DNA of 54,201 nucleotides from Rhodothermales bacterium (lineage in GTDB: Bacteria > Bacteroidota > Rhodothermia > Rhodothermales > JAHQVL01). The DNA lies in NCBI GenBank assembly GCA_041738655.1, contig JBGSPJ010000401.1, forward strand, positions 1 to 54,201. Direction: 5' to 3'. The notes beneath the pieces were generated by a model. The model saw only the letters and a program-made list of their open reading frames with translations, made no database searches and was not told where the DNA came from. Positions 7,939-36,310 of the stretch are shown in pieces (position 1 is the stretch's first letter; each line of letters opens with the position of its first letter). A program made the position numbers and the translations under genes.

Positions 7939-8742
7939 ATGAACCGTTTCCCGAGTTTTGTCGCGACCCGTCTGGTCGGGTGGCTTGCGGTCGGCCTCCT
8001 GATGCTCGCCCTGCCGGCGACGACGCGCGCGCAGGAGTATGCCGTAGTTTCTGTCGAAAGTAACACCGCTGATGCGCTCGTCTACGCGGATTCGCTCTAC
8101 CTGGGGCGGGCGCAGACACAGTGGTTTTTTGTGCCCAGAGAAACGGCGCAACTCCGCCTTGTCTACCCGTCGGGAGATAGCTGGTCGATGACGCCCGCGC
8201 AACTTCCCGTGGATCTACGCACGGTGGATACGCTGCGGGTCACGCTGGATTTTATGTACCACTACGCGATCACCACGGACCCGTTTGATGCCAGCGTGTT
8301 GCTCGAAACGCCGGATGGGCGTTCGTTGCTGGGCACAACACCGCTGCTCCACACGTCGTCCGAGCCTTTGCAGGGGATGCTGTTGTTGCAGAAGGAGGGC
8401 TACGCGTTGAAGCGGCTTACCCCCGGTGATCGCATCTGGAACCGGCATGACGAGAGCCTCACGCCGGAGGCGCCGGACCTGGCCCTCGACGCGGTCGGCG
8501 AACTGGACCGCGGGCCGCGTGGGCGCTGGCTGAATCTGGCGTTGGGCGGTGCCGCCGTTGCTTCGGGTGTTCTGGCCGTTCATTTCAAGATGAAGGCCGA
8601 CGCCCGGTATGATCTCTATGCGGTTGACGGCGACCCACGGCTCCGCGGTAGCTTCGAGCGGTTTGACCGCCGCGCCGCGGTGGCGCTTGGTGCCATGCAG
8701 GTTGGGGTTGGCGTCCTTGCGATCCGTCTCGTGCGTCAGTAG
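7939..8742 (+). CDS. Secreted/membrane-anchored PEGA-like domain protein (hypothetical)
   Basis: Starts 5 nt after the upstream stop. Signal-like N-terminus (LVGWLAVGLLMLALPATTRAQE). PEGA-like segments (VYADSLYLGRA, DASVLLETPDGRSLLGTTPLL). Two C-terminal hydrophobic helices. Confidence 0.5.
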   Translation: MNRFPSFVATRLVGWLAVGLLMLALPATTRAQEYAVVSVESNTADALVYADSLYLGRAQTQWFFVPRETAQLRLVYPSGDSWSMTPAQLPVDLRTVDTLRVTLDFMYHYAITTDPFDASVLLETPDGRSLLGTTPLLHTSSEPLQGMLLLQKEGYALKRLTPGDRIWNRHDESLTPEAPDLALDAVGELDRGPRGRWLNLALGGAAVASGVLAVHFKMKADARYDLYAVDGDPRLRGSFERFDRRAAVALGAMQVGVGVLAIRLVRQ

Positions 8743-10193
8743 GCGCCGGAGCCTTTCAGGACGGCCGTGATGGTGCGGACAAGAATCACGGCGTCCAGCC
8801 AGAGCGACCAGTTGCGGACGTAGTAGGGATCCCACTGCTCCATTCCCTCGTTGCCGGTGTCGCTTCGCCCGGATACCTGCCAGAGCCCGGTGATGCCCGG
8901 TCGGACGCGCTCGCGCAGCTCGCGGACGCGTCGTGGAAGTTCGTTGCAGTGGTAGGTGGGGAGAGGGCGTGGGCCTACGAGCGACATCTCGCCCCGCAGC
9001 ACGTTGATCAGCTGCGGGAGTTCATCCAGGCTGAGCCGGCGGAGAAGCCGGCCTATTTTGGTGATGCGCGGGTCCTTGCGCAGCTTGTAAAACGTCTCCC
9101 ACTCCGTCCGCATCGCTTCGTCAGTTTCCAGCTTCTGCCGCAGCACGGCTTCCGCGTTGGGCACCATCGTGCGGAATTTGAACGTGCGAAACATCTTGCC
9201 CCCGCGGCCGACCCGCTCCTGCAGGAAGAACGGGCTCTGGCGGTCCTCGAACCAGATCAAGAACGCCAGCGTCGCGCAGATGGGAAACCAGATCAGGCTC
9301 GTCAACAGGACGACCATCACGTCGAACGTGAGCTTGGCGAACCGGGAGACCGGGTTGATGAGGTTGGAAGTGATCTCGAGCCCCAGCATCCCGCTCAGGT
9401 CGCGGGGTTTTACCCAGAGCGAAGGCGATTCCAGGAGATCCGGCACCAGCAGCACCGTGCGGTAGTAGGATAGCGGCCCTTCCAATAACTCCGTGGCGCG
9501 CGCGCTGGACATGCTGGGCATGGCAAGGATGGCGACGGAGGCTTCCGGCGTCACAAGGTTTGTCCCGCCTTCGATCGGTACATTAAGGAGCGCGGTATTC
9601 CAGGAAGAGGGATCGTCGTCGAAGATGCCAATCGGCTTGTAGCCCAGGCCTTTTTCTGCCTGGAGGAAGCGGACGATCCGCTCGGCGAAGTCACCGCCCC
9701 CGTAGATGACTGTGGGCAGCCCCCAGACGCCCAGCCGGATCAGCAAGTATTTCACCATCATCCGCATGAACGGAACGGTTACCACGCTGAACAGGAAGGA
9801 GAGGGTGAGGGTGATACGGCTTACGGATTCAGAGGCTTTGCTGATAAATAGCACGACGGCGGCGCCGGCGAATATTACGATCAACAGGAGCACCGTCCGT
9901 CGGAGTTCCTCCACCGGCCCGAGTCCCCAGCTGGGCAAAAGGTGCGTGATGGCCGTGCCGACCCACCAGGCCGGGATCAGATACCAGGCCCATTCCGGGA
10001 TGAGGAGGGCGCCCTGCCAGAACAGACGGATCGAGCCGGCCAGGAGAAAGGCGAACACGATAGCGATCATGTCGCTCGCGGCGAGCACGAGCACATTCTG
10101 CAGACGATGTCTGAGGTAAGAGACCAGCCATTCCCCTCGACGCGGAAGCCGCTCGTAGAAGGAGCGTTCAGAAAGTACCTCAACAAGTTCCAT
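8736..10193 (-). CDS. Polyprenyl-phosphate hexose-1-phosphate transferase (WbaP-type priming sugar transferase)
   Basis: 485 aa. N-terminal multi-TM region. C-terminal bacterial sugar transferase domain (FRTFKFRTM, LDELPQLINVLRGEMSLVGPRP, RPGITGLWQVSGRSD). Confidence 0.88.
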   Translation of the reverse strand: MELVEVLSERSFYERLPRRGEWLVSYLRHRLQNVLVLAASDMIAIVFAFLLAGSIRLFWQGALLIPEWAWYLIPAWWVGTAITHLLPSWGLGPVEELRRTVLLLIVIFAGAAVVLFISKASESVSRITLTLSFLFSVVTVPFMRMMVKYLLIRLGVWGLPTVIYGGGDFAERIVRFLQAEKGLGYKPIGIFDDDPSSWNTALLNVPIEGGTNLVTPEASVAILAMPSMSSARATELLEGPLSYYRTVLLVPDLLESPSLWVKPRDLSGMLGLEITSNLINPVSRFAKLTFDVMVVLLTSLIWFPICATLAFLIWFEDRQSPFFLQERVGRGGKMFRTFKFRTMVPNAEAVLRQKLETDEAMRTEWETFYKLRKDPRITKIGRLLRRLSLDELPQLINVLRGEMSLVGPRPLPTYHCNELPRRVRELRERVRPGITGLWQVSGRSDTGNEGMEQWDPYYVRNWSLWLDAVILVRTITAVLKGSGAY

Positions 10194-10469
10194 TCAGTAT
10201 GACCCTTCAAAAATGAGTGACCGGGGTGTCTGCATCGCTCGGAATTGTGGGGGATGCACACACCAGGTTCAGACCAGGGGATGACGTGACTCGCAAGTTA
10301 CATCATCCCCTGGCCGGGCCGTTCAACCTTGAGCGCAAGCGACATGCGCCACCGGGAAGGTGGAAGCCGTCGTTACGTGCCGCAGGCTACCGGTTCAGAT
10401 CCGATATGGCTATGGGGGGCATAGCCGATGGGCGCACCGGAAGGTGCCGGCCCTGCGACAATAGTCGTG

Positions 10470-11420
10470 TCAGTGCTGGGGCAATGCGGCTTCTTCCTTG
10501 CGGAAATAAGCCAGCGTGCGCCGCAGCCCCTCCCGACGCTCGATCTGAGGCGTCCAGTTGAATATCCGCTTTGCCTTGCTGATATCCGGCTGGCGGACCT
10601 TCGGGTCGTCGTCGGGCAGGTTCTTGAAAATGATCTCGCTCGGGCTTCCGGTGAGGGAGATCACCTCACGCGCGAAGTCGAGGATCGTGATCTCATCCGG
10701 ATTGCCGATGTTCACCGGGCCCGTCTCATCACTCATCAGGAGGCGATAAATCCCCTCGATAAGGTCGTCGACATAACAGAACGAGCGGGTCTGGCTGCCA
10801 TCTCCATAAACAGTGATGGACTCGCCGTTGAGCGCCTGTTTCATGAACGTCGGGAGCGCCCGGCCGTCGTCCAGGCGCATCCGCGGGCCGTACGTATTGA
10901 AGATGCGTACCAGCCGCGTATCCACACCGTGGTAGCGGTGATACGCCATGGTCATGGCCTCGGCAAACCGCTTGGCCTCGTCGTACACCCCGCGGAGACC
11001 GATGGGGTTCACGTTGCCCCAGTACTCCTCGGATTGCGGGTGCACGAGGGGGTCTCCGTAGACTTCGCTCGTCGATGCGATGAGGAAGCGCGCACCCTTG
11101 GCCTTGGCCAGGCCGAGCGCCTTATGGGTCCCCAGCGCACCCACCTTGAGCGTCTGGATCGGGTATTTCAGATAATCTACTGGCGAAGCGGGGCTGGCAA
11201 AATGCAGGATATAATCCAGCGGCCCATCCACGTAGATGTAGTTCGTGATGTCCAACTCGATAAAGGTGAACTGGGGATTGCCGATCAGGTGCGCGATGTT
11301 ATCGGGCCGGCCCGTGATGAAGTTGTCGACACAGAGGACTTCATGCCCCTCCTGGATAAACCGGTCGCATAAATGCGAACCCAGGAAGCCGGCTCCGCCC
11401 GTGACAAGAGTACGTTTCAT
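10470..11420 (-). CDS. uxs: UDP-glucuronate decarboxylase (UDP-xylose synthase)
   Basis: 316 aa [30 protein letters not shown], catalytic YDEAKR, and a UXS-typical C-terminus ([14 protein letters not shown]). Confidence 0.88.
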
Positions 11421-11448
11421 ATTCCGTTACTTCAACGCCATTGAGAAT

Positions 11449-12813
11449 CTATCGCTCGATTTCGAGGGCGCCGACGTTCGCGGGAACGTGCGGGCGACCG
11501 ATCGAAAAATACGTAAATCCTTTGGTAGCCATCGTTTCAGGTTTATAGAGATTGCGGCCGTCGAATACGATCGGATGACGCATGAGACTGCGCATCTTCT
11601 CGAAGTCGGGCCGCCGAAATTCATTCCACTCCGTACAGATCACAAGCGCGTCGACACCGTCGAGAACGCTGTAGCTATCCTCGTGATAGGTGATGGTCTG
11701 GCCAAGCTCGGCGCGCGTCGTTTCGATTGCCTCGGGGTCGAACGCGCTAATTATGGCTCCGTGGGCGAGTAGCCCCCGGATGATGACATGCGCCGGCGCC
11801 TCCCGGACGTCGTCCGTGTTCGGTTTGAACGAGAGGCCCCAGATCGCAATCTTCTTGCCGGCGATGTTGCCACCGAAATGCGTCAGGACACGATCTACCA
11901 GCAGGCCGCGCTGTTTCTCGTTCACCTCCAGTACCGAATTCAGGATGGCAAACGTGTAGCCGTGTTCGTCGGCGGTGTACTTCAGAGCTTTGACATCTTT
12001 GGGGAAGCAGCTCCCGCCATACCCAATGCCCGGATACAGGAACTGCTTGCCGATGCGGCTGTCGAGGCCGATCCCGACACGGACCATGTCCACGTTCGCG
12101 TCGACGGATTCGCACAGGTTGGCGATCTCGTTCATAAACGTGATCTTCGTGGCCAGGAAGGCGTTCGCCGCGTATTTCGTCATCTCGGCCGAGCGCGGAT
12201 CCATATCCAGGATCGGGTTGCCCTGGCGAACAAACGGTTCGTAGAGCGAGTGCATCTGTTCGAGGGCACGGGCACTTGTCGAGCCCACCACGACGCGTTC
12301 CGGCTTCATGAAGTCCTCCACGGCCACGCCTTCCCGGAGAAATTCCGGGTTGGAGACCACATCGAAGTGCTCGCCGGCGACCAGACCGCGTTCGAGAAAA
12401 ACCGCCGTCACGCGGTCCGCCGTGCCCACGGGCACGGTGCTTTTATTCACGATCACCTTGTAGCCCAGGGCTGGATCCTTCCTGAGCAGGTCGGCAATGT
12501 CGGCCGCGACGCCCAGTACATAGGAAAGATTTGCCGAGCCGTCGCTCGCCGAGGGTGTGGGCAATGCCAGGAAAATGATCTCCGCGTGACGCACCGCGTC
12601 GATCAGCGACGAGGTAAAATGCAGGCGCTCCTCGCGGAGGTTGCGTTCGAAGAATATCTCCAGCCCGGGTTCGAAAATCGTCAATTTGCCAGAGCTGAGC
12701 CGTTCTACCTTCGACCGATCGATATCGACGCAGACGACTTCGTTGCCCATCTCGGAAAAACACGTTCCGGAGACCAGGCCTACATATCCAGTTCCTACAA
12801 TGGCTATATGCAT
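11449..12813 (-). CDS. ugd: UDP-glucose 6-dehydrogenase
   Basis: 454 aa. [16 protein letters not shown] Rossmann start. Catalytic Cys motif [18 protein letters not shown]_dh C-terminal domain. Confidence 0.93.
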
Positions 12814-13087
12814 GAGTGCGCGTAGTTTTTAGCGAATACTATCAAAAATGGGACCGGGGCGGCGGCGTCAAGAATGATTTCCTGCGTACGTCGCACCCGG
12901 GAATACGATCCAGAAAGGGGGAAAGAAAACGGCCGGCGGGAAGATGGCCCCGCGGACGGCTCGAGGGGCTTCAAGGGGATGTGCAGTCGGATCAAACGAC
13001 AGTGGGCGACACGCTTCAATCGATCCTCCTCCCCGGTCGTATCGCTACTATCAGACGACGGAGCCCGCTCAAAAAATAGGAGCGTCT

Positions 13088-13126
13088 GAAATAAAACGGA
13101 CGAAGGGAGCATCGCTCCCTTCGTCC
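13088..13126 (-). terminator. Rho-independent terminator downstream of sat/cysC
   Basis: Perfect 13-bp stem GGACGAAGGGAGC / GCTCCCTTCGTCC (13098-13126) with a 3-nt loop. On the minus strand it is followed by GTTTTATTT. It lies 32 nt after the TGA at 13158-13160. Confidence 0.8.
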
Positions 13127-13157
13127 GGATACCATCATACGCCTGTTGAGTGCCGGA

Positions 13158-14898: not shown

Positions 14899-15684
14899 TT
14901 ATCGTTTCGTGTTGATGCCTTTCTTCGCACGCTGTCCGAGCAACTGACGCAAAAACAGCACGACAAAGCGAGGGTTGTGCTTCAAATATCGTTTCCAGAG
15001 CCGCCCGGGCTCCATAGCCAGGCGGAAGGCCCATTCCAGACCCATTCGTTGGATCAGGCTCGGGGCCTGGCGCACGCGTCCCGTATGAAAATCGAACGCG
15101 GCGCCGACGCCCAGCATGACGGCGTTTATGGTGTCCTTGTGCTCCGCCATCCACTTTTCCTGTTTGGGGCAACCGATGCCAACAAACAGGATTCGGACGC
15201 CGGACGCATTGATTTCCTGAATATACCGAGCGTCCTCTTCCTGCGTGGGCGGGCGGAAGGGGGGCGCGATTTTGCAGCCGATCCGGGTGCCGGCAAACCG
15301 CTGCGTCAGGAAGGTTTCGAAAGCGTCGAGGCTTTCCGGCGTGCCGCCATAGAGCCCGATCGGTATGCGCTGCTGCGCGGCTGCTTCGCAGACGTGCAAC
15401 GTCAGATCGGGCCCGTATACCCGGGTGGCTTCCTCGACGCCCATCAGGCGCAGCGCCCAAACGAGGGGTACGCCGTCCGGGGTGACGAGGTCCGCGCCGT
15501 TCACGATTCGCCCGAAAGCGGGGTCATCGTGAGTCTCCATCACCATGTGCACGTTCGCGGCACAAACGATCCGCGAACGCCCTTCGCGCGCCCAATTGAC
15601 CACTTTTTGCGTCGCATCGGGATAACTCGTCACATCAACCTGCATGGTGAGGATGGTGCGACTGTCCCTTGGGGCGGAGTACAT
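14899..15684 (-). CDS. WecB/TagA/CpsF-family glycosyltransferase (GT26)
   Basis: 261 aa. Family-typical VTPDGVPLVWA, ILFVGIGCPKQEKW and LGVGAAFDF motifs. Confidence 0.85.
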   Translation of the reverse strand: MYSAPRDSRTILTMQVDVTSYPDATQKVVNWAREGRSRIVCAANVHMVMETHDDPAFGRIVNGADLVTPDGVPLVWALRLMGVEEATRVYGPDLTLHVCEAAAQQRIPIGLYGGTPESLDAFETFLTQRFAGTRIGCKIAPPFRPPTQEEDARYIQEINASGVRILFVGIGCPKQEKWMAEHKDTINAVMLGVGAAFDFHTGRVRQAPSLIQRMGLEWAFRLAMEPGRLWKRYLKHNPRFVVLFLRQLLGQRAKKGINTKR

Positions 15685-15804: not shown

Positions 15805-17043
15805 TCAATACACGGGTTCGCGACGGGGAGTTCGGGGGGTAATGGTTTCGTAGAGCCGGGTCACCTGCTCGGCTTTCAGCGTCCATTCGTTGGTGCGAGC
15901 GAACGCAAGCCCGGCCGCGCTCATGCCGGCGAGCCGTTCCGGATGCCCAAACAGCGTTGAAATGGCGCCGGCGAGCTGTTCGGCCGTTTCTTCGGGGGTG
16001 GTAACCGGCACTTTGAGGCCGGCTTCGTCCGGCACAAAATCATGCGCGCCCTGGTGATCCAGCGTGACAATCGCCAGTCCATTGCTCATGGCTTCCAACA
16101 ATTGGGAGCCAAACGAATCCCGGAGGCTGGTGAATAAAAAGACTTCGTGTTCTTCGTAGGCGCGCTGAACTTCGCTCCAGGCCACCCGCCCCGGGGCATG
16201 GACGCGCCCGGTCAGCCCGAGCTCCTCGATCCAGCGAGGCACATCGGCGTCCTGGGGGCCATCGCCCAGGATCGTCATCGAAAACGGGATGTCCAGCCGG
16301 GCGACAGCTTCCAGCGAAAGGAGCAGCGCCTTGCGCTCGAGGAGCCGGCCCACCCAGAGGATGTGCGCGGTGCCGTCGCGAAACCGACGTTTGGGTTCGG
16401 CCGCATAATAGGTCGCCGGCAGCCCCGTGTCCAGGAATAACTCGGCCCGCGGTGCACCCATCCGGCGTGCGATCGCGAGCGTCTCGCTATTGGTCGCCAG
16501 CAGCAACGCGGTATGCCGCAGCATCCGCCGCGTCGAGGGCAGGTGGGGCAGCCATGTTTCGGTAATGTACGTGCGCAGCGATTCCTCCCGCCAGCGGGTG
16601 GGAAAATACCGTGCGAACGCCGAAGGGGCTACCTGACCGCCTCCCACAGGGCCAAATACAAACGGTTTCCCGAGCTTCCATAACCAGGAGCCCCCGATCA
16701 GGCTGCCCCAGGTGACGTGATGGACGAGGTCGATTCCCTGCAGGCCAATCAGGGACTGCGCTTCACGGTACGCGGCTCGCTGCCACAAAAAATAGTGGGC
16801 ATATACCCCGAACAAGCCCTTGATAAAGCGCCGGTAGGGGGTAGGGATGTCTACGTAGACAAAATGCAGATTCGGGATCGGCGTTTCGGCCAACGCGCGC
16901 TCGATAGCCGCGCGGGCCAACGGACGCGTCATCACCCACAGTTCATGGCCCTGTCCGGCCAGATGCGTGGCCCAGTTCCAACCGAAACCCTCCTCCGATC
17001 CGCGATTGGGCTCGCAGGCGTAGGCCGCTAACAATACTCTCAT
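15805..17043 (-). CDS. Glycosyltransferase family 4 (GT-B)
   Basis: 412 aa. N-terminal MRVLLAAYACEPNRGSEEGFGW. C-terminal GT1/4 signature (VFLFTSLRDSFGSQLLEAMSNGLAIV). Confidence 0.85.
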   Translation of the reverse strand: MRVLLAAYACEPNRGSEEGFGWNWATHLAGQGHELWVMTRPLARAAIERALAETPIPNLHFVYVDIPTPYRRFIKGLFGVYAHYFLWQRAAYREAQSLIGLQGIDLVHHVTWGSLIGGSWLWKLGKPFVFGPVGGGQVAPSAFARYFPTRWREESLRTYITETWLPHLPSTRRMLRHTALLLATNSETLAIARRMGAPRAELFLDTGLPATYYAAEPKRRFRDGTAHILWVGRLLERKALLLSLEAVARLDIPFSMTILGDGPQDADVPRWIEELGLTGRVHAPGRVAWSEVQRAYEEHEVFLFTSLRDSFGSQLLEAMSNGLAIVTLDHQGAHDFVPDEAGLKVPVTTPEETAEQLAGAISTLFGHPERLAGMSAAGLAFARTNEWTLKAEQVTRLYETITPRTPRREPVY

Positions 17044-17130: not shown

Positions 17131-19248
17131 TCAAAGCATCCGCTTTCCCGAGCTCGCACACCCTGGTGCGGCGGGGAAACAGGGGATGTAGCCCGTAATA
17201 TATTTGAGAATCAACGAGGCGTCGAACGCCGTAACGTCGCCGTCTCCACTGGCGTCCGCGCCGGCCTGCCCGCTCAGATTGAGGAGTCCACTTGCATGTT
17301 GAAGCACCAGCGAGGCATCCAGCGCGGTAACCAGTCCATTTCCCGAGGCGTCGCCGGGCACGCCGGCTCCTGTTTCATCCGGCGTATCATTACTGAATTG
17401 ATCGGCGCCCGGATCGGAGCCGGCGACAGGACGAGGGTCGCCATCAAAATCGGCAAGCAGGGGCGGTATATCCGAAGGCAATGCAACCCCCCTGCCTGTG
17501 AACTGCGAACCGTTGGCCAGGCGCCAACCCAACGCCATGTCGGTGGTGTCAACGACATGCGCTTTTGAAAGGTCCACCACCATAGAGTTGTAATCGGTCT
17601 GCGCGGCGTTTTGCCAGTCCTTCAGGCTGGAGGAACGGGTGACGCTGACGCCGCTGGCCGGCCGGAATTGGAAGGTGTTGTACTCGTGTGTCGCGTAATC
17701 GCGGTACCACATGACATTTCCGTCGCCCTTGTTGCTGCGCGCGTCATCTACGTTGACATGCTCCTCGAACGACAGTTCACTCGAGCGCCGCTCCGTGCCG
17801 TGCACTATCCGGGTATTCGCGACGAATAGATTGTTGTAATAGCGGTTGCCCGTGGCCTTGCCCCGATAATCGGCCCGGATACGCATGGCACCGCCCTCAT
17901 TCGCCATCATGGTATTGTGCAGGATCACGTTGTCGTTCGCGGCGTGCACAAGCAGTCCGTACCCGTAGAACGAGGGGCGCGCAAACCGGGCGCGGGTCAT
18001 CACGTTATTGCGTACGATGGTGTCGTTTGTGAGCAACTCGAGGAAGAGGTTGACCCCGTAATTATTGTCGAACACGCTGCGCTCGATCGTGTTGTTGTAA
18101 TTCTCGGTATCCAGCCAGAGGCCAGGGCCCTCGTTGTCGGAAAAGTCCAGATGCCGGAATGTGGAGTTGGTGGTATAAAGCCATTTTCCGCCGCCGGATT
18201 CCCAGAAAGGTTTGTATCCCTTCCAGTTGTTGTATCGGCTTTCGGCGTACTCGAGCAAACACCGGTCACAATATTCCCCGCGGATGCCGCTCATGCCGTT
18301 GCTGAAGGCGTATACACCGCGGGCGATGTGGTCGTCGCCCCGCATGAAGATGCCGGCGCCGTTGTTCCACTCGGCCGTCACGTTTTCGATGAGCGAGCCC
18401 TCGCTTCCCACACAGATGGCGCCGGTGAGTCCGTCGTTCGCCGTATGCCGAAAGATGAGGTTCACAAAATGGAAGAAGCCGCGCTCCTCGCCTACATTGC
18501 AGTTCGATTCGCTTCCCGAAGGGGTGAAGAGATTGTTCGTGCGGCTCGTTTGCATGGTGGCGTTGTTGGGGTTCTTCCCACCGGGTAGCCAGGCATACAT
18601 CCGGGTCGGGGTTGCCGGCGACCCTTCGAGAAAAAACGTGCCTTCAACGACATCGGCGCGCGTGTATACGGCTTTGAGCATCTGGTCGTCGGCGATGAGG
18701 ACATCGCGCCGGCGCGCGTCATCGTCCTGCGGAACGCCGTCGTTCACGCGGCGCACCCAGAGGGCCGGCAGCGTCCAGGTCATCTTCCACACCTGGCCGG
18801 CATCGAGCGTCCAGGTGCCGGATAGCGGAACCGCACCGGAGATCGCCACACGCTCCCCGGGATACCCTACGTACGCGATGCGTTTCCCTGCCGTGCCTCC
18901 ACGCACCGGGATGATCTCGCCGTAATACGTGCCCTCTCGAATGAGGATCGCATCGCCGGGTTGTACGCTGCTATGTTGAGCCGCGAAAACGACCGTCGCC
19001 CAGGGGGCGCTTTCGGTGCCGGGGTTGCTGTTGCTGCCTTTCGACGCATCCACCCAGTGGATCACGCCGCCGCCGGCGGTCAGTACATCACGGACGGGCT
19101 GGCAGGTGCCGTTGGCCCCGCACATCGAACCGGGGCCGCAATCCTGTTGCAGGTAACATTGCTGGGCGTGCGCGGATCGGGGGAGAAGAAGGATGAGAGA
19201 TAATGATAGAACAGTCGCAAGTAGGGAAACGATTCGATTGGATCGCAT
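17131..19248 (-). CDS. Secreted right-handed parallel beta-helix protein with a C-terminal type-I dockerin-like module
   Basis: Start set at the ATG at 19248 (MRSNRIVSLLATVLSLSLILLLPRSAHA). Cys-rich stretch QQCYLQQDCGPGSMCGANGTCQP. Repetitive N/G/I-rich beta-helix coils. Duplicated Ca-binding dockerin segments GDASGNGLVTALDASLVLQHASG and ADASGDGDVTAFDASLILKYITG (about 17191-17355). Confidence 0.75.
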   Translation of the reverse strand: MRSNRIVSLLATVLSLSLILLLPRSAHAQQCYLQQDCGPGSMCGANGTCQPVRDVLTAGGGVIHWVDASKGSNSNPGTESAPWATVVFAAQHSSVQPGDAILIREGTYYGEIIPVRGGTAGKRIAYVGYPGERVAISGAVPLSGTWTLDAGQVWKMTWTLPALWVRRVNDGVPQDDDARRRDVLIADDQMLKAVYTRADVVEGTFFLEGSPATPTRMYAWLPGGKNPNNATMQTSRTNNLFTPSGSESNCNVGEERGFFHFVNLIFRHTANDGLTGAICVGSEGSLIENVTAEWNNGAGIFMRGDDHIARGVYAFSNGMSGIRGEYCDRCLLEYAESRYNNWKGYKPFWESGGGKWLYTTNSTFRHLDFSDNEGPGLWLDTENYNNTIERSVFDNNYGVNLFLELLTNDTIVRNNVMTRARFARPSFYGYGLLVHAANDNVILHNTMMANEGGAMRIRADYRGKATGNRYYNNLFVANTRIVHGTERRSSELSFEEHVNVDDARSNKGDGNVMWYRDYATHEYNTFQFRPASGVSVTRSSSLKDWQNAAQTDYNSMVVDLSKAHVVDTTDMALGWRLANGSQFTGRGVALPSDIPPLLADFDGDPRPVAGSDPGADQFSNDTPDETGAGVPGDASGNGLVTALDASLVLQHASGLLNLSGQAGADASGDGDVTAFDASLILKYITGYIPCFPAAPGCASSGKRML

Positions 19249-22323: not shown

Positions 22324-22517
22324 CGGATTGAATGGAGGCTGCGATGCAAAGGCGATGGGCGCATAGGGACGAGGCGGGTTCACCCGGTGCACGCGCGCAG
22401 CGGTCGCCGGCGACACGCCGGAACCGCTGGTTGCCCTTCCAATTCGTCACACCCCTCGGGGTTTCGCTGAAAGCGAGGATAGACGACGTCCTGTGTATCG
22501 GAGCCGGCGGCGTTCGC

Positions 22518-23507: not shown

Positions 23508-23548
23508 AGAACCAGTCTTCTGTGAGCGAAAACGCTCAGCGATCGGAG

Positions 23549-25976: not shown

Positions 25977-26003
25977 AAATTACTCGTTCGAGGAAAGAGG
26001 TCC

Positions 26004-26882
26004 TCAGGAGGATGAAATGATGTCGAGCTCCTTGTATAGCTCGTGGTATCCCCAGCGTTCGATGATGTCGCCCACCTTCGCGGTCACGGCCGGCATCAGC
26101 ATCTCGGGGATCTCTTCCTGCCATGAGGCGACCTGGCCCTTGCGGAAGGTGTGCCGGCCGGGGCCGAACAACTCTTCGACGACCTTGTCGATCGGTGGAT
26201 TCTTGATATCCAGACTATCGCACAACCGACGCAGGGTGTTCCGCTGGATCTCGTCCGAACCGCCGCCGCGGTTACCTACGAGATCCTCGAAGCGAATCTT
26301 GACCGTGTCGTCCGACGACAGCCATCCCTCCAGGGCAAGGCAGCGCGATCGCAGCGGTTCGAGGTAGGCGTTTCGGAAACGCCGTCCGTTGAGCACGGCA
26401 TCAAACCGCTCGTCCATGTTGAGCGCAGCAAATTCCGCGTGGATGACATGCTCCTTGCGTTCGGCGACATAGTGAACAAAAGAAACCAGAACGGCGCGAG
26501 GATCCCGAAAGACGACGATCGGCCGGATATCGTGCGCCACCACGGCGTCCAGCAGCGCCGTTGAGTATCCGACGTGCGCCGTGAAAAAAGAATGGGTCGG
26601 CGCTTTGCGCAACATCCGGTGCACGGCGCCGCGAGAGATCTCCACCGGCGTGTCGATGCCCACTAGATAGCCCTGGCGTACGGGCAGCCAGGCTAGCCGG
26701 CGCCATTTGCTGGCCAGGCCGGGGTTCAACACCTGCGCGGAGCCGACATGGTCGCGCTCGGAGTACCCCATCAATTTGAGGCATTTCGCGGTAAGGTGAG
26801 TACCGGATTTGGGCAGCGAGTTTATAAACGCTTGTTTCATTGATTCAGGTCGCAAGCGGCGCGTTAACGCCAGGAGGGGCAT
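26004..26882 (-). CDS. Sulfotransferase domain protein (PAPS-dependent)
   Basis: 5'-PSB loop FINSLPKSGTHLTAKCL. RFEDLVGNRGG. No signal peptide or TM helix. Its ATG shares one base with the wzy stop (TGATG). Confidence 0.8.
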   Translation of the reverse strand: MPLLALTRRLRPESMKQAFINSLPKSGTHLTAKCLKLMGYSERDHVGSAQVLNPGLASKWRRLAWLPVRQGYLVGIDTPVEISRGAVHRMLRKAPTHSFFTAHVGYSTALLDAVVAHDIRPIVVFRDPRAVLVSFVHYVAERKEHVIHAEFAALNMDERFDAVLNGRRFRNAYLEPLRSRCLALEGWLSSDDTVKIRFEDLVGNRGGGSDEIQRNTLRRLCDSLDIKNPPIDKVVEELFGPGRHTFRKGQVASWQEEIPEMLMPAVTAKVGDIIERWGYHELYKELDIISSS

Positions 26883-28324
26883 CAGATTCGGTTCTGGGCA
26901 TGATAGGCCCTGTAATACAACCGCGCAGCCTCTTTCTCTTCCGCGTGGTTCTGCGCAATGGCCAGGCCAAGGCTCACAAATAACCAGGTAAAGGGCTCGA
27001 AATCGTACGCCACGTAATAGGCGGAGGCACCCAGCAACACCACAAGGCTCAGCAGGGAGGTCATTTTGTAAAAGGGGTCTAGCGTTTCAACATAGGTCCG
27101 CCGAAGACGCACATACGTTTGCAGGGCAAACGACAGGTATAACAGAAGCCCGATGACGCCAATCTGGTAATGCAGCTGGATGTATTGATTATGGAGCATC
27201 GCTGTTACAATCGATCCGGTCGGAGACCGCAACTGAAAGTAATTACCGAGTCCTTTCCCTTCGAGAAAATGCGCTCGGGATTGCTCGAGGGCGTCCATCC
27301 AGAGATGAAAGCGCCAGCTGGCTGTCTGGTCTTCGGAAGGCGCCGTGAGCGCTGTCATGCGCTCCTGGATGTAGCCAAACAGATCGAGATCGTCATACAC
27401 GAGCCCGAGCAGGAGCGCGGCCGTGATGGCGAGGAAAGTCAATTTCATGATCGTTCCCATCCGGAAGTAGCCCATCAAGAACAGAACGAACAACGAAACG
27501 ATGGCCGCCAGCCAGACGGAGCGGTGGCTGGCAATGATCGTCAGCGCCATCGATATCCCGATCAGCATCGCCAGCAGCGTGTTGCTCCGCCACCAGAAGC
27601 CAAATTGCTTCATCAGGTAAATCGCCAGTGTTCCCCACAGCAGTGCCAGCGAACCGTGCTGGTACAGCCACTTCGCGTACGCATGGAACGCGAAGTGGTG
27701 GACATACGCGCCGCGAAACAGGCCGATGGCGATGAAGGAAAGCGTCATGCCGACCAGGACCTGGAAGACACGCCACTGATCATGCCGGGTGCGCGCGAAA
27801 ATGATCACGTAGGGCACGATGAGGATTTCCCGGAAGTACGTCCGGAACTCGCCCAGCGGGCTGACCACGCCAAAAAGCATCATCGAGCGGGCGAGTTCAA
27901 AAACCATCCATCCCATGAATATGGTCCACCACAGGTTCTCCCGGAGCAATACGTGGCGCGCGCGAAGGTCGCTGGAAAACACTTTGACGGCCATCGCGGC
28001 CAACATGGCGAACAGGATCGGGTCGCCATACAACATGTCCACGCCGCCGCCGGCGCTGAGCGAGGGCTCGACGTAGTTCGAGTAGTCCCAGATGACGACC
28101 TCGACCATGATCTGCGTGGCTAGCCCCCACATCAGCACCATCACGAGGTGGTACTTGTAGGCGACCAGTACCAGACCAAACGCCAGGCAGAGGCCGTTGA
28201 GGAGCAAAACAACCTTCTCCCCTCCAAACACCAGGAACGCAAAAAACGACAGCGCGACGAGCACCATCGCGCTGATCTCTACAGGCGAACGCCGGCTTGA
28301 CGCTTTTTCAAGCAGGCTGGACAT
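26882..28324 (-). CDS. wzy: O-antigen ligase/polymerase-family membrane protein (Wzy-type repeat-unit polymerase)
   Basis: 480 aa, polytopic (about 11-12 TM helices). One larger periplasmic loop with an Arg/His-containing segment, as in Wzy_C-type proteins. Sits in a context with wzx, wza and wzc. Confidence 0.75.
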   Translation of the reverse strand: MSSLLEKASSRRSPVEISAMVLVALSFFAFLVFGGEKVVLLLNGLCLAFGLVLVAYKYHLVMVLMWGLATQIMVEVVIWDYSNYVEPSLSAGGGVDMLYGDPILFAMLAAMAVKVFSSDLRARHVLLRENLWWTIFMGWMVFELARSMMLFGVVSPLGEFRTYFREILIVPYVIIFARTRHDQWRVFQVLVGMTLSFIAIGLFRGAYVHHFAFHAYAKWLYQHGSLALLWGTLAIYLMKQFGFWWRSNTLLAMLIGISMALTIIASHRSVWLAAIVSLFVLFLMGYFRMGTIMKLTFLAITAALLLGLVYDDLDLFGYIQERMTALTAPSEDQTASWRFHLWMDALEQSRAHFLEGKGLGNYFQLRSPTGSIVTAMLHNQYIQLHYQIGVIGLLLYLSFALQTYVRLRRTYVETLDPFYKMTSLLSLVVLLGASAYYVAYDFEPFTWLFVSLGLAIAQNHAEEKEAARLYYRAYHAQNRI

Positions 28325-28451
28325 AACCGTTGCGATCCATCGGATACTACGTTAAAAAGGAATGACGACGCGGCGTGTGGACTCGAAAAATCATAAAAAT
28401 GGGCACGCGAGCGTCATCAAGTACAGTGCCACACGGCCTGTTTTGTTTCGA

Positions 28452-31229: not shown

Positions 31230-31242
31230 CGGGGCGGAGCTA

Positions 31243-32316
31243 TCAGGCGACGTGTCGTTCGCGAAGGGTGAGTTCGTCCCGTGCGGCGTCGAGGTCGGAG
31301 TCTACCATCTCGCGCACCATGTCTTCGAGCGTGCAGGTGGCTTCCCAGCCCAGTTTCTGCTTGGCCTTGGTCGGGTCGCCCAGCAACAGGTCCACTTCTG
31401 TCGGGCGGTAGTAGCGGGGGTCGACTTCAACGACCACTTCGCCGGTATCAGTCCGGTACCCTTTTTCGGCTTCCTCGGCGCCCTTCCAGGCCACTTCGAT
31501 GCCGACGGCGCCGAAGGCCGCGTTGCAGAAGTCGCGCACCGTCGTCGTCCGGCCGGTGGCGAGCACGTAGTCGTCCGGCTGGTCCTGCTGGAGCATCATC
31601 CACATACCCTCGACATAGTCGCGGGCGTGGCCCCAGTCGCGCTTGGCGTCCAGGTTACCCAGATACAGTTCCTTCTGGAGCCCGAGTTTGATGCGGGCGA
31701 CAGCGCGGGTGATCTTGCGCGTCACGAAGGTCTCGCCGCGGAGCGGGCTTTCGTGGTTAAACAGAATGCCGTTGCAGGCAAACATGTTGTAGGCCTCCCG
31801 GTAGTTCACCGTGATCCAGTAGCCATAGAGCTTGGCGGCGGCGTACGGGCTGCGCGGGTAAAACGGCGTCGTTTCGCTCTGGGGCACGGCCTGTACCTTG
31901 CCGTAGAGCTCGCTGGTCGAGGCCTGGTAGAAACGGGTCGTGTTCTGGAGTCCGAGGATACGGATGGCTTCCAATAGCCGGAGCGTACCGATGCCGTCGA
32001 CGTTGGCCGTGTACTCCGGCGTCTCGAAGCTGACCTGGACGTGGCTCTGGGCGGCGAGGTTGTAGATCTCGGTGGGCTGGACTTCCTGCACGATACGGAT
32101 CAGGTTCGTCGAGTCCGTTAGATCGCCGTAATGGAGGAAAAAGCGGGCATTGTCGATGTGCGGGTCGACATAGAGGTGATCTATGCGCTGCGTGTTAAAG
32201 GAGCTCGAGCGGCGTTTAATGCCATGCACCTCGTAGCCTTTCTTGAGCAGCGATTCGGCCAGATAGGCGCCGTCCTGACCGGTGATGCCGGTGATCAAAG
32301 CACATTTCTTTTTCAT
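31243..32316 (-). CDS. gmd: GDP-mannose 4,6-dehydratase
   Basis: 357 aa. [60 protein letters not shown]. Near-canonical Gmd. Confidence 0.95.
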
Positions 32317-32373: not shown

Positions 32374-33342
32374 TCAAGCGGGCATATGATGGTCCTGAAA
32401 CCACGCATAGGATTGTTCGATGCCCTTTCGGAGCGAGGTGCCGGCCGTCCAGCCGAGCTTCGTCATCCGCGAGACATCCATCAATTTGCGCGGGGTGCCG
32501 TCCGGCTTGGAGGCGTCGTATTCGATCGGGCTGGTGCTGCCGACGACGTCGCGCACGAGCTCGGCCAGTTCGCGGATCGAGAGGTCGTATCCGGCGCCCA
32601 CGTTCAGGATGCCGTCCGGCGCCGTCCCATAAATAACATCGGCCGGTTGCTCCATCGCAAAAACGGTGGCGTCCGCCATGTCGTCCACGTACAAGAATTC
32701 GCGTAGCGGCTTACCCGATCCCCAGATGGGCACGGGGGCGTCAGGAAGGCCGTTGGTGCCCTTCGCCTCGTGGAATTTACGGATGAGCGCGGGGAGGACG
32801 TGACTGGATTTGAGGTCAAAATTATCGTTCGGGCCGTACAGGTTGGTCGGCATCATGCTAAAAAAGTCCGACCCATGCTGCTTTCGGTACGCCTGACAGA
32901 GCTTGATGCCCGCGATCTTCGCGATCGCATACCATTCGTTCGTCGGCTCGAGTGGACCTGTGAGCAGGTACTCTTCCTTTAGCGGCTGGGGCGCCAGCTT
33001 GGGATAGATGCAGGAGCTTCCGAGGAAGATCAGCCGCTTGACGCCGGCGCCAAACGCCGCCCGGATAATGTTGGTCTCTATCACCAGGTTGTCGCTGATG
33101 AAGTCGGCCGGGTAGGCGTTATTCGCGAGAATCCCTCCGACTTTCGCCGCCGCCAGGATCACCACGTTTGGGTGTTCCTTTGCAAAAAACGAGGCCACAT
33201 CCGACTGGGAGAGAAGGTCCAGCTCCTGCCGGGTGCGGGTCACGATGTGGTCGTACCCGCCGGCCGTAAGGCGGCGGACGATGGCGGAGCCTACGAGCCC
33301 CCGGTGGCCGGCCACAAAGATCCGGTCGTGTTTGGAAATCAT
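32374..33342 (-). CDS. fcl: GDP-L-fucose synthase (GDP-4-keto-6-deoxymannose 3,5-epimerase/4-reductase)
   Basis: 322 aa. IFVAGHRGLVGSAI, LGSSCIYPK, YAIAKIAG, PTNLYGPNDNF. Canonical Fcl/WcaG. Confidence 0.93.
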   Translation of the reverse strand: MISKHDRIFVAGHRGLVGSAIVRRLTAGGYDHIVTRTRQELDLLSQSDVASFFAKEHPNVVILAAAKVGGILANNAYPADFISDNLVIETNIIRAAFGAGVKRLIFLGSSCIYPKLAPQPLKEEYLLTGPLEPTNEWYAIAKIAGIKLCQAYRKQHGSDFFSMMPTNLYGPNDNFDLKSSHVLPALIRKFHEAKGTNGLPDAPVPIWGSGKPLREFLYVDDMADATVFAMEQPADVIYGTAPDGILNVGAGYDLSIRELAELVRDVVGSTSPIEYDASKPDGTPRKLMDVSRMTKLGWTAGTSLRKGIEQSYAWFQDHHMPA

Positions 33343-33348
33343 GAGGGT

Positions 33349-33882: not shown

Positions 33883-33946
33883 GATAATTCTCTCGGGGAT
33901 GTGTGTGAACGACTGATCGTTGGGAGTTGCGCCCGAGATGCAGCGG

Positions 33947-36310
33947 CTAGCTGGCCACGTAACTATTCGAACCGTAACTATATCCGTACGTGTTCCGATA
34001 GCCGTACATGCTGCTCGGGTCGAATCGATTGAGCACTGTACCGATAACATTGGCGCCCACGCTCCGCAGTTCTTCGATGGACTGCTTGAGGGAGTCCATG
34101 TCTGTGCCGTCGGCCGAAGCAACGACGATGACGGCGTCGCACTGGCGCGAGAGGAGCACGGGGTCGACGGCGCCCAGGACGGGCGGGGTGTCGAAGATGA
34201 CGATGTCGAACTCGCTGCGGAAGCGTTCGACGAGATCGATCATCTTACGCGACCCGAGCAGTTCCGCCGGCTGGGAGACCGGGATGCCCGTGATCACATA
34301 GAGATTCTCGAACCCGGTGAAGAAGCGTTCGGAATCCCAGCGGCTTTCATCCTCCGAAAGCAGTTCGAGCAGGCTGGGGCCTTCGGGCAGGCCGAGCTTG
34401 TCATGCAGCGACGGACGACGGAGGTCCGCATCCACCACAAGCGTCCGCCGGCCGGCCTGCGCGGTTGTAAACGCGAGGTTCAGTGCCGTGGTGCTCTTTC
34501 CGGCGCCGGCCTTGGGGCTCGTGATCATCAGGTTCTGGATGCCACGGTCGTCGCGGCTGAACTGGAGCTTGATATAGAGCCGGCGATAGGCCTCAGCGAT
34601 CGGTGATATAGGGGCAATAAGGGCTACCAGGCCGGTGCTGATCTCGCGGCCCTCGAAGTCGATCTTGGTGCGTTTGCCAAACTCCTTCTTGATGAGCTGC
34701 CGCATGTCCGGCACGACGCCGATCATGTTGATGTCGCTCACCGTGAGGTCGTCCGGCGTGTAGACGCGGGTGTCCAGCTTCCGGCGGGCCACGGCGGCGC
34801 CCACACCCAGCATGAGGCCCAACATGAGGCCCATGGCAAGGTTGACGGCCTTGCGGGGTTTCAGCGGTGCTTCCGGCGCGACGGCGCTGCGGATGACTTT
34901 GGCGAAGCCGCGTTCGGATTGTTCGGCGATCCGGATCTGGCCGAGTTTCTGGGAAAGGATCGTGTACAGTTCCTCGGCGGCGCCCTGCTGGCGTTCCAAC
35001 TGGGTGAGCTCGATCGCTACGTCCGGGATGTTCTTGAGCTTGGCGTCATACTCGCGCAGGCGCTGCTCGAGACCGCGCACCCTCGCCTGCTGGCCGCTAA
35101 TGGCGATTCGCTCATCGGCGATCTTGCGCTTGAGATCGGCGAGGTACGTCATGCTCAGGCCCTCCTTCTTAGGGTCGATGCCGCCTGTGTTGACGAGGTC
35201 GTCGACATATTCTTCAGACAGGCTGCGGACCCGGGAGCGGAGCTGCGCGATCTGGGCCTGCATGTCCAACACGGTGGGGTTGCCCTCCGGGTTGTCACGC
35301 AACTGCGGGTTTTTCTGGAAGATTACATCCACCTGCATTTCCAGATCGGCGATGCGCTCCTGGGCCTGCTCCAATTCGCGCTCGACCGTCGAGGCGACAC
35401 GGTTTGTGAGGCGGGGCTGCATGTCCATCAACTCCTGTTCGAGCGTCAGTAGCTGGGATTCGCCCATGCTCTGCTCGATGCGCGCGTCCTCCAGCATGGC
35501 CTGCATGGTTGCAATCTGGGCGACAGTGTACTTGGCCTGTTCGTCCAGCGCCGTGGCGCCTTCGCGGCTCATATAGTTGGCCAGACGGGTCTCCAACTCG
35601 TCGAGTTCGATCTTCTTCTCCGCGAACTGCTGTTCGAGGAAGATCCGCTGGGCGGTCAGACGTTCGCGGCTCATGTCCTCGGTGAGGTGGACATATTCTT
35701 CCGCGTACATGTTGGCGATGAGCGCGGCCTCTTCGGCGGAGCTGCTGCTGGCGCTGATGATAAGCGCGTCTGCACTGCTCTCGCTGTCGGCCGGCTTGAT
35801 GCCCAGGTATTCCTCCTGGAGTAGCTGGGCGAGGTGGCTGATCGAAGTGCTCTCCTCGAGGATGGCCAGCGGCGCGCCCGAGACCGGGAGCGTGCGCATC
35901 TCGACGAGCCGGTCCGCCGTGCGCCGGGCAATCTCGGTGGATTGCTGAAGCAATAGTTGCTGCGTTTGGAGCTTGGAGTCTGCTCTCATGCCGCCCTTCA
36001 GGAAGTTCGGCGCCAGCTTATCTTCGTCCGTCGTCGCCTTTGTGTCCACGAGCAGCAGGGTGCTCGCCTGATAGACCGGCACCATGGTGAAGGTATAGAC
36101 CGTCACGGCCGTGAACACCAGCGACGCGATGCCGATGATGTACCACTTACCCAGGCGTAAAATTTCGAGCGCCTCGTGCAGAGCCGTTTTCGAATCCGGT
36201 TCCTTTCGGCCGTACATGGGGCCCATGAAACGAGGATCGGGGGGGCCCATTTGCTGCGCGGGAAGATTCTGGTAGTATCCGCGACTTACGGGGTAAGAGT
36301 TGTTGTCCAT
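33947..36310 (-). CDS. wzc: Polysaccharide co-polymerase / tyrosine autokinase (Wzc, GumC-like)
   Basis: Start set at the ATG at 36310 (MDNNSYPV). Wzz-type N-terminus with a TM helix and a long coiled-coil. Walker A SPKAGAGKST, A' VVDADLRRP, B IVIFDTPP. C-terminal Tyr cluster YGYRNTYGYSYGSNSY. Confidence 0.9.
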   Translation of the reverse strand: MDNNSYPVSRGYYQNLPAQQMGPPDPRFMGPMYGRKEPDSKTALHEALEILRLGKWYIIGIASLVFTAVTVYTFTMVPVYQASTLLLVDTKATTDEDKLAPNFLKGGMRADSKLQTQQLLLQQSTEIARRTADRLVEMRTLPVSGAPLAILEESTSISHLAQLLQEEYLGIKPADSESSADALIISASSSSAEEAALIANMYAEEYVHLTEDMSRERLTAQRIFLEQQFAEKKIELDELETRLANYMSREGATALDEQAKYTVAQIATMQAMLEDARIEQSMGESQLLTLEQELMDMQPRLTNRVASTVERELEQAQERIADLEMQVDVIFQKNPQLRDNPEGNPTVLDMQAQIAQLRSRVRSLSEEYVDDLVNTGGIDPKKEGLSMTYLADLKRKIADERIAISGQQARVRGLEQRLREYDAKLKNIPDVAIELTQLERQQGAAEELYTILSQKLGQIRIAEQSERGFAKVIRSAVAPEAPLKPRKAVNLAMGLMLGLMLGVGAAVARRKLDTRVYTPDDLTVSDINMIGVVPDMRQLIKKEFGKRTKIDFEGREISTGLVALIAPISPIAEAYRRLYIKLQFSRDDRGIQNLMITSPKAGAGKSTTALNLAFTTAQAGRRTLVVDADLRRPSLHDKLGLPEGPSLLELLSEDESRWDSERFFTGFENLYVITGIPVSQPAELLGSRKMIDLVERFRSEFDIVIFDTPPVLGAVDPVLLSRQCDAVIVVASADGTDMDSLKQSIEELRSVGANVIGTVLNRFDPSSMYGYRNTYGYSYGSNSYVAS

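Follow-up and report, generated by a model that had tools for sequence, protein, structure and literature searches.

A chromosomal Wzx/Wzy/Wzc locus of a Rhodothermales bacterium probably directs the synthesis of a sulfated polysaccharide containing fucose and xylose

The 54.2-kb contig JBGSPJ010000401.1 of a Rhodothermales bacterium (GenBank assembly GCA_041738655.1; about 61% GC), the whole of which is referred to below as the window, carries at positions 8736-36310 an unbroken co-directional series of long open reading frames (ORFs), consisting of 20 genes on the minus strand and extending over about 27.6 kb. We conclude with good confidence that this series is a chromosomally inherited Wzx/Wzy/Wzc locus for exopolysaccharide (EPS) or capsule, making a sulfated heteropolysaccharide of L-fucose and xylose. 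An initial annotation, made from the sequence alone, had arrived at the same core proposal, and the hidden Markov model (HMM) tests that it suggested all came out in support. The gene identities given here were obtained by HMM scans with Pfam and NCBIfam and by sequence similarity to PDB entries, while motifs and signal peptides were read from the sequence; negative results on domains in the window refer to the larger ORFs, which were scanned. Except for fcl, which fell just under its cut-off, the predicted functions were above the curated HMM thresholds or showed strong PDB similarity. The coordinates and scores of all features are shown in Table 1.

Sulfation of the product is predicted from three genes, a fused sat/cysC gene and two genes for sulfotransferases of the 3'-phosphoadenosine 5'-phosphosulfate (PAPS) type, herein designated ST1 and ST2. 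These had been described as a complete sulfation toolkit, with sulfotransferase HMM searches as a proposed check, and both sulfotransferases as well as the fusion protein were recovered above the respective cut-offs. The Sat/CysC protein is composed of PUA_2, ATP-sulfurylase and APS_kinase domains, and the motifs of the sulfurylase (QTRNPMHRAH and GRDHAG) and of the kinase (P-loop GLSGSGKST and LDGD) are all intact, indicating that the enzyme should make PAPS and not merely adenosine 5'-phosphosulfate (APS). On account of the intact P-loop and LDGD we also rejected the view of the APS-kinase part as a merely regulatory domain of the fungal type. Both sulfotransferases carry the 5'-phosphosulfate-binding loop and the 3'-phosphate-binding motif for PAPS, as these are generally defined for the family, and both are devoid of a signal peptide. 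The motifs are PRSGST and WRNPL...S in ST1, where they are invariant in 12 relatives, and LPKSGTH and FRDPRAVLVS in ST2, of which the likely start at position 26840 gives a protein of 278 aa, matching its relatives.

The machinery for assembly is encoded by the same gene series. Wzc, Wzy, Wzx and the WbaP-type priming transferase, as named in the initial annotation, were each confirmed by HMM, and the five glycosyltransferases (GTs) listed there, two GT2, one GT4, one GT-B-like and one GT26, were also found. The autokinase domain of Wzc gave 139 bits with TIGR01007 (cut-off 108), and its C-terminal tail, SSMYGYRNTYGYSYGSNSYVAS, contains 7 tyrosines in the last 22 residues. Relatives of the GT-B-like gene show a weak match to Glyco_trans_1_4.

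The nucleotide-sugar branches, gmd and fcl for GDP-L-fucose and ugd and uxs for UDP-xylose, were likewise supported by HMM and PDB similarity. Fcl, marginally below the cut-off, scored 400 bits above every other family. Ugd gave 450-467 bits with solved bacterial structures of the UDP-glucose dehydrogenase family, and the assignment of Uxs is sound because it gave 378 bits with human UDP-glucuronate decarboxylase, compared with 144 bits for the next family. Since GDP-L-fucose and UDP-xylose are the end products of the locus enzymes, fucose and xylose are likely the characteristic sugars of the polymer.

Based on these assignments, we can also propose the order of events, for which the canonical Wzx/Wzy pathway and synechan (PMC8205485) served as the models. 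Similarity to known proteins identifies the enzymes, places both sulfotransferases in the cytoplasm and provides the export signals of two large accessory proteins. The WbaP-type enzyme would prime undecaprenyl phosphate with a hexose-1-phosphate, possibly galactose, and the five cytoplasmic GTs (GT26, GT4, GT-B-like and two GT2) would complete a roughly hexasaccharide repeat on undecaprenyl diphosphate, using as donors GDP-L-fucose (Gmd and Fcl), UDP-xylose (Ugd and Uxs), possibly UDP-glucuronate, and the housekeeping sugar nucleotides. With PAPS supplied by the locus-encoded Sat/CysC fusion, the signal-less ST1 and ST2 would attach at most two sulfate esters to each repeat at the cytoplasmic face before flipping. 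The sulfated unit would then be flipped by Wzx and polymerised by Wzy, with Wzc controlling polymerisation and export, the latter through some outer-membrane component. Outside the cytoplasm, a beta-helix/dockerin enzyme and a lectin/PhoD-like lipoprotein exported by the twin-arginine translocation (TAT) system may trim, release or modify the polymer, the PhoD-like protein acting in the periplasm.

Several observations weigh against this interpretation or against parts of it. The organism is an uncultured metagenome-assembled genome (MAG) and the locus is known from its genes alone. The assignment of the GT-B-like gene is borderline (Table 1). A verified outer-membrane polysaccharide export (OPX)/Wza protein was not found in the window, nor was Wzb, which may be encoded elsewhere in the genome, matches to LMWPc/LMW-PTP or PHP being absent among the larger ORFs. 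The lack of Wzb, manB/manC and acetyl- or pyruvyltransferase genes agrees with the initial annotation; a phosphatase for 3'-phosphoadenosine 5'-phosphate (PAP) and a sulfate transporter were not found in the window either. As neither a verified outer-membrane exporter nor Wzb, manB/manC, PAP phosphatase or a sulfate transporter was found in the window, the original term self-sufficient goes too far. Sat/CysC could serve sulfur assimilation as well. The presence of ugd does not imply incorporation of glucuronate, since UDP-glucuronate is the obligatory precursor of UDP-xylose and ugd is needed to feed uxs; of the fucose/xylose/glucuronate polymer first envisaged, the supply of fucose and xylose was upheld, and glucuronate is possible but not implied, perhaps serving only as the UDP-xylose precursor. 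Among the 38 loci of ST1 relatives outside the Rhodothermales clade with full 10-kb flanks, true gmd was detected in 7 and true fcl in 6, and the ST1 family is therefore not fucose-specific. The suggested resemblance to algal fucoidan or xylofucoglucuronan is reduced to an analogy in sugar palette, from which neither a linkage nor a sulfate acceptor follows. ST1 is not an equivalog of the fucose sulfotransferase NoeE (74.6 bits, with the cut-off at 500), the match reflecting the shared PAPS-binding part only.

A small exported protein of 177 aa is encoded at the usual position of Wza. It had been annotated as a short Wza, an identification that we could not sustain: no match to the Poly_export HMM was detected, a stretch reminiscent of SLBB domains stayed below threshold (13 bits against 27; E 0.08-0.11), and its AlphaFold2 (AF2) model, of moderate quality (pLDDT 69), gave no PDB fold match at E<0.001. 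Among 5.8 billion clustered proteins only 12 homologs were found, all of about 160-180 aa. The lack of a verified Poly_export/Wza domain in the locus would be expected if Wzx and Wzy delivered to a ligase and not to an export channel, the product being the O-antigen of lipopolysaccharide (LPS) or another cell-bound glycan. The Pfam family Wzy_C, to which Wzy belongs, is described as O-antigen ligase, and sulfated O-antigens have been proposed in the literature (PMC11641403). The first gene of the series, however, encodes a PCP-2a (polysaccharide co-polymerase) tyrosine autokinase with a tyrosine-rich tail, a signature of capsule and EPS systems unlike the Wzz-type pathways for O-antigen, and a second Wzy_C gene of the WaaL type was not seen in the locus. 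Owing to this bacterial tyrosine kinase (BY-kinase) type of Wzc, the O-antigen reading was rejected as unlikely in favor of EPS or capsule.

A systematic search for ST1 relatives was performed with one genome per species, covering 185,579 species, and detected them in 524, with about 41-52% full-length identity. The closest relatives are annotated as Rhodothermales MAGs; others are distributed in Actinomycetota (many Rubrobacteraceae), Cyanobacteria, Planctomycetota, Gamma- and Zetaproteobacteria, Acidobacteriota, Nitrospirota, Chloroflexota, Deinococcales and a haloarchaeal MAG. Some of the carriers are cultured strains, such as Mariprofundus sp. EBB-1 and four others, Rubrobacter aplysinae (L005), Longimonas halophila KCTC 42399 (L045), Haliea sp. 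E17 (L031) and Sinimarinibacterium sp. CAU 1509 (L062), in which the ST1 relative has gmd nearby, with or without fcl. When all the window proteins were compared by tblastn with 85 ST1 loci, Wzx was detected near the ST1 relative in 28, Wzc in 26, GT26 in 21 and the priming transferase in 13. Genes for Wzx, Wzc or a priming transferase are the usual company of ST1 relatives in other phyla. ST2 homologs were near ST1 in 27 of the 85 loci, and the two are at most 140 bp apart in 15 loci outside the Rhodothermales clade. The R. aplysinae locus is notably alike in gene content, with gmd, fcl, GT26, GT4, a priming transferase, Wzx and three sulfotransferases. The pair of ST1 and ST2 looks like a recurrent module for polysaccharide sulfation that is not tied to fucose. 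The earlier statement that sulfated EPS is uncommon, with few loci defined, is correct for characterized loci; the genes themselves are not rare, as the number of species with ST1 relatives indicates, and comparable loci have been published.

The same survey is relevant to the possibility that the polymer is made as proposed but ST1 and ST2 sulfate a lipid, a small molecule or a protein, Sat/CysC being an enzyme of ordinary sulfur assimilation located here by chance. The nearest solved relatives of ST1 are sulfotransferases for polyketide (CurM, the closest, with 67.5 bits) and for protein tyrosine, and not carbohydrate enzymes; ST2 is without a solved relative; and Sat/CysC was found beside ST1 relatives in just 10 of the 85 loci. 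In contrast, the gene order wzy-ST2-wzx-ST1 shows both sulfotransferases embedded in the Wzx/Wzy cluster, the start of ST1 even sharing 8 nt with the 3' end of wzx, and the association of Wzx, ST1 and ST2 is recurrent across phyla. Moreover, the genetics of Synechocystis and Actinoplanes link such embedded sulfotransferases to a polymer phenotype (PMC8205485, PMC13390465). An acceptor other than the polysaccharide is considered quite unlikely, and sulfation of the polymer itself is the preferred reading.

The same order of genes was found throughout in at least seven related contigs, L001 (GCA_041391505.1), L002 (a Logan contig), L003 (GCA_034439735.1), L004 (an 8.1 Mb ENA contig), L006 and L007 (Rhodothermales MAGs) and L089 (a JGI metagenome contig), with ST1 identities of 64-90%; the PhoD-like and beta-helix genes are included where the contigs extend that far. 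Many of the locus genes are also present in one more contig, L111. An exact-sequence look-up of the ST1 ORF and gmd returned no record. The contig L089 is collinear with positions 41146-18497 of the window at 81% nucleotide identity, the flanking housekeeping genes sbcC and cvpA included, and the locus genes are 77-90% identical while the flanks are 73-81% identical. Site and flanks are thus the same in L089, and conservation is no lower in the locus genes than in the flanks. It follows that the locus has been inherited vertically at one fixed position in the chromosome; it is under purifying selection and is not mobile. That the locus is a mobile or horizontally transferred island of recent acquisition, and so says little about the biology of Rhodothermales, might be suspected from the lower GC content of the stretch with ST1, wzx, ST2 and wzy (57-58% at 22000-29000; 60-64% in the rest of the locus), from the scattering of ST1 relatives over many phyla and from a tRNA-Pro gene 7 kb away. 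The GC dip is, however, modest and of the kind usually seen in the structure-specific or serotype-specific core of polysaccharide loci, and the scanned ORFs gave no sign of an integrase, a transposase or flanking repeats. With the flanks shared by L089, a mobile island was rejected as highly improbable, leaving a chromosomally inherited locus.

Three genes, those for the beta-helix/dockerin, PhoD-like and DUF4915-like proteins, were left unnamed in the initial annotation. The DUF4915-like gene, which separates GT2b from ST1, was found in L001-L003 and L089 but is absent in L004, L006 and L007, and is an accessory gene restricted to the closest relatives. The secreted beta-helix/dockerin protein is a candidate glycanase, lyase or polymer-level modifier, its sequence being compatible with a hydrolase, a lyase or an epimerase alike; its relatives match Pel9A-like_beta_helix, and weak PDB matches were obtained to a GH120 xylosidase and to polysaccharide lyase family PL6. 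Cluster-encoded glycanases are common in EPS systems, for instance the GH26 enzyme of Actinoplanes wps-1 (PMC13390465). A second beta-helix protein of the window (52041-53759, plus strand), which is 33% identical to the locus paralog over 430 aa, is without dockerin and shows weak matches to Chondroitinase_B and DUF1565. Its gene adjoins that of a GntR regulator (51006-51932, minus strand), with a gene for a sodium:solute symporter (46901-48571, plus strand) about 3.5 kb off, and it may be the catabolic counterpart of the locus enzyme.

Of all features in the window, the 925-aa protein offers the most novel lead, because its homologs elsewhere adjoin sulfatases. It starts with a twin-arginine signal followed by a lipobox (SRRQFL...LSSC). 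The PF09423 match covers profile positions 139-268 of 343 and the NCBIfam PhoD equivalog gave 15.6 bits against a cut-off of 1000, suggesting a weak relationship to PhoD, and a search of the PDB with the profile of the PhoD-like family gave no match. In the AF2 model, which is confident (pLDDT 78, pTM 0.81), the N-terminal portion of about 260 residues was related by Foldseek to legume-type (ConA-like) lectins and jelly-roll polysaccharide lyases, and the fold search with the whole model recognized this lectin-like domain and nothing else. The gene is kept in every syntenic locus reaching its position, and proteins of about 50% full-length identity occur in marine Planctomycetota, Acidobacteriota and Balneolaceae. 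After a survey of 83 neighborhoods (L086-L168), a formylglycine-type sulfatase (PF00884, 192.6 bits) was identified as the commonest neighbor, being present in 19 of the 83 loci, always within 1 kb, and less than 100 bp away in 11 of these 19. A SusD-type locus in a Balneolaceae MAG (L087) contains, in addition to the PhoD-like gene, two GH29 fucosidases, a sulfatase, GH78, RhaM and a dehydratase of the mandelate racemase/muconate-lactonizing enzyme (enolase) superfamily. Only in the loci of the Rhodothermales type was the PhoD-like gene found in a biosynthetic cluster. These neighborhoods speak, independently but circumstantially, for a substrate that is sulfated and contains fucose. The release step of secreted EPS of the Wzy type is poorly understood. 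As a speculative proposal, which we regard as doubtful, the 925-aa protein would found an uncharacterized family of periplasmic or surface enzymes acting on sulfated fucose-containing glycans, here freeing the polymer from undecaprenyl diphosphate or trimming it, and in marine Planctomycetota, Balneolaceae and others aiding breakdown beside sulfatases and fucosidases. We found no characterized member of this PhoD-like family, and a literature search returned no paper tying PhoD-like proteins to fucoidan or sulfatase loci.

The arrangement of the locus was analyzed from ORF coordinates and homolog lengths. The count is 20 genes, close to the previous estimate of about 21, and all are co-directional on the minus strand as described. 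The 102-aa ORF in the spacer between sat/cysC and ugd was rejected as the 21st gene, as it overlaps a strong terminator and is without family match, and is probably spurious. The plus-strand ORFs within the locus were discarded as shadow ORFs of GC-rich sequence, because the gene calls of related contigs hold only co-directional genes. From wzc to wbaP, the 19 junctions measure 64, 6, 57, 13, 127, 41, 27, -8, 41, ~194, 40, 59, ~201, 87, 120, 13, 344, 28 and 276 nt. Eleven of them are 64 nt or shorter, so that the description of most junctions as 0-60 nt or overlapping is barely true; the wider gaps are located before GT2b (~194 nt), before the beta-helix gene (~201 nt), at two more positions (120-127 nt), at the terminator (344 nt) and before wbaP (276 nt). 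The strong terminator downstream of sat/cysC, reported as the only one, was confirmed, and the remaining terminator-like matches were no commoner than in shuffled sequence, the stronger ones lying inside coding sequence. A promoter upstream of wzc probably drives transcription as far as this terminator at 13.1 kb, with ugd-uxs as a second unit and wbaP probably separate. Because of the larger gaps, including that of 276 nt, wbaP may have its own promoter.

The 725-nt non-coding region upstream of wzc includes blocks of 96% (36936-36985) and 90% (36686-36735) identity with L089, compared with 81% overall. No Rfam match was detected in this region, the only one elsewhere in the window being tRNA-Pro, and no XssS/XssR/XssQ-type regulators (two-component or STAND) were found among the window ORFs scanned. 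A scan for sigma-70 promoters, which does not cover promoters of the Bacteroidota type, was not above shuffled expectation. On the other side, three plus-strand genes (3589-8742) are convergent with the locus at its wbaP end, encoding a 1059-aa protein with Peptidase_MA, PD40 and Omp85, a BamB-like beta-propeller protein and a PEGA-domain protein, the gene for the last sharing 7 nt with the 3' end of wbaP. At 2478-3548, 5 kb beyond the locus, is a bact-PGI_C/SIS protein of the bifunctional phosphoglucose/phosphomannose isomerase type, which could feed the GDP-mannose branch.

Table 1. Genes and other features of the polysaccharide locus (bits are given with the cut-off after "vs" where available)
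Feature	Position	Strand	Basis or remark
WbaP-type polyprenyl-phosphate hexose-1-phosphate transferase (priming)	8736..10193	-	TIGR03022 437 bits vs 403; Bac_transf PF02397 200 bits
uxs, UDP-glucuronate decarboxylase (UDP-xylose synthase)	10470..11420	-	378 bits to human UXS1 structures
ugd, UDP-glucose 6-dehydrogenase	11449..12813	-	TIGR03026 452 bits vs 190
102-aa ORF, ATG start (rejected as gene)	12804..13112	-	sat/cysC-ugd spacer; no family match
Intrinsic terminator after sat/cysC	13097..13127	-	14-bp stem, 10 G-C pairs, T-tract; -28.2 kcal/mol, z -7.09
sat/cysC, bifunctional ATP sulfurylase/APS kinase (PAPS synthase), 575 aa	13158..14885	-	NF004040 900 bits vs 669
GT26 (WecG/TagA/CpsF family)	14899..15684	-	PF03808 198 bits; TIGR00696 179 bits vs 69
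GT4	15805..17043	-	Glycos_transf_1 81.5 bits
Secreted right-handed beta-helix protein with C-terminal dockerin	17131..19248	-	Beta_helix 57.7 bits, Dockerin_1 35.4 bits, NosD; signal peptide
GT-B-like glycosyltransferase (weak call)	19450..20463	-	Glyco_trans_1_2 26.2 bits vs 25
GT2a	20523..21392	-	Glycos_transf_2 76.6 bits
GT2b	21433..22323	-	Glycos_transf_2 52.6 bits
DUF4915/TIGR03032-like protein, 329 aa	22518..23507	-	PF16261 28 bits vs 35 (below cut-off); TIGR03032 26 bits vs 251
ST1, PAPS-type sulfotransferase, 334 aa	23549..24553	-	Sulfotransfer_3 PF13469 119.9 bits vs 27
wzx, MOP-superfamily flippase	24546..25976	-	Polysacc_synt 70.8 bits vs 28.2; MatE
ST2, PAPS-type sulfotransferase	26004..26882	-	Sulfotransfer_1 PF00685 40 bits vs 22
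wzy, repeat-unit polymerase	26882..28324	-	Wzy_C 52.7 bits vs 31.7
TAT-signal lipoprotein, lectin-like and PhoD-related region, 925 aa	28452..31229	-	PF09423 33.8 bits vs 27, partial
gmd, GDP-mannose 4,6-dehydratase	31243..32316	-	TIGR01472 623 bits vs 415; PF16363 542 bits
fcl, GDP-L-fucose synthase	32374..33342	-	NF047922 487.2 bits vs 500
Small exported protein at usual Wza position, 177 aa	33349..33882	-	Signal peptide; conserved C-terminal hydrophobic helix
wzc, PCP-2a co-polymerase with C-terminal tyrosine autokinase, 787 aa	33947..36310	-	Wzz, GNVR, CbiA/AAA_31 (P-loop)
Non-coding region upstream of wzc, presumed promoter and leader	36311..37035	-	725 nt; no ORF with family match

In E. 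coli, the loci for group 1 capsule and colanic acid share with the present locus the WbaP/WcaJ-type priming, Wzx, Wzy, the Wzc autokinase and in-cluster gmd and fcl. They differ in having canonical Wza and Wzb beside wzc, acetyl- and pyruvyltransferases and manB/manC, and in the absence of sulfation genes. In the xss cluster for synechan, described from Synechocystis sp. PCC 6803 (Maeda et al. 2021, PMC8205485), Wzx, Wzy and a polysaccharide co-polymerase are likewise accompanied by two sulfotransferases of different subfamilies among the GTs. The gene count fits the repeat size and the number of sulfates in that system, with 2 sulfotransferases and 8 GTs for a polymer of 2 sulfates per 8 sugars (PMC8205485), as it does in the present proposal. 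The outer-membrane exporter of synechan is encoded outside the cluster, and none is verified in the present locus either. In contrast, xss is located on a megaplasmid, includes eight GTs and the regulators XssS, XssR and XssQ, and makes a polymer of rhamnose, mannose, galactose and glucose (PMC8205485). A PAPS synthase, gmd/fcl and ugd/uxs have not been reported for xss, whereas the present locus is chromosomal, has its own PAPS synthase and its own supply of GDP-fucose and UDP-xylose, and includes two exported enzymes.

The wps-1 cluster of Actinoplanes missouriensis (PMC13390465, 2026) also combines Wzx, Wzy and Wzz with two sulfotransferases of different families and an in-cluster glycan-cleaving enzyme, and an adjacent gene for sulfate adenylyltransferase/APS kinase is required for the same phenotype (PMC13390465). 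This cluster differs in its actinomycete host, in the glycanase, which is GH26 and not a beta-helix protein, and in the presence of a methyltransferase and a kinase-like gene (PMC13390465); it is without gmd/fcl, ugd/uxs and the PhoD-like protein, and sulfation of its product is also unproven. For the sulfated capsule of Vibrio sp. KMM 8419, of which the solved structure contains a sulfated 6-deoxyhexose, L-rhamnose, PAPS genes and sulfotransferases are again present in the polysaccharide cluster, a combination called a "hallmark" of sulfated polysaccharide clusters (PMC11641403). That cluster differs in export by an ABC transporter (Kps), in separate cysD, cysN and cysC, in its size of 80 genes and in the supply of rhamnose instead of fucose and xylose; ABC-type clusters for sulfated capsules are known from Vibrio and Cobetia (PMC11641403, PMC11766843). 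Within the same order as the present bacterium, Rhodothermus marinus makes a xylose-rich EPS with sulfate-ester bands by Fourier-transform infrared spectroscopy (FT-IR; PMC9590192), and sulfotransferase genes were noted in strain-specific parts of its genomes (PMC9590192; bioRxiv 10.1101/2021.05.17.444423). The locus for this EPS is undefined and fucose is unreported, and the likeness is one of taxonomic order and of predicted EPS chemistry.

Sulfated-polysaccharide loci of comparable make-up have thus already been published, and the present locus adds one to them. What stands out is that a single compact and conserved unit brings together the sulfation genes, the two nucleotide-sugar branches and two accessory enzymes that are exported. 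As biomaterials, sulfated polysaccharides are valued and still mostly of animal or algal origin, and few bacterial biosynthetic loci have been defined; a compact locus of about 27.6 kb and 20 genes, with its own supply of PAPS and nucleotide sugars, is attractive as a template for making a sulfated fucose/xylose polymer in a heterologous host. The sulfotransferase pair is found in many phyla, cultured strains included, and sulfated EPS may be distributed far wider among bacteria than recent descriptions of it as exclusive to cyanobacteria would allow. Despite the uncultured source, the prediction is testable in the cultured carriers of related modules. For the Rhodothermales, the locus could explain the sulfated, xylose-rich EPS reported from this order.

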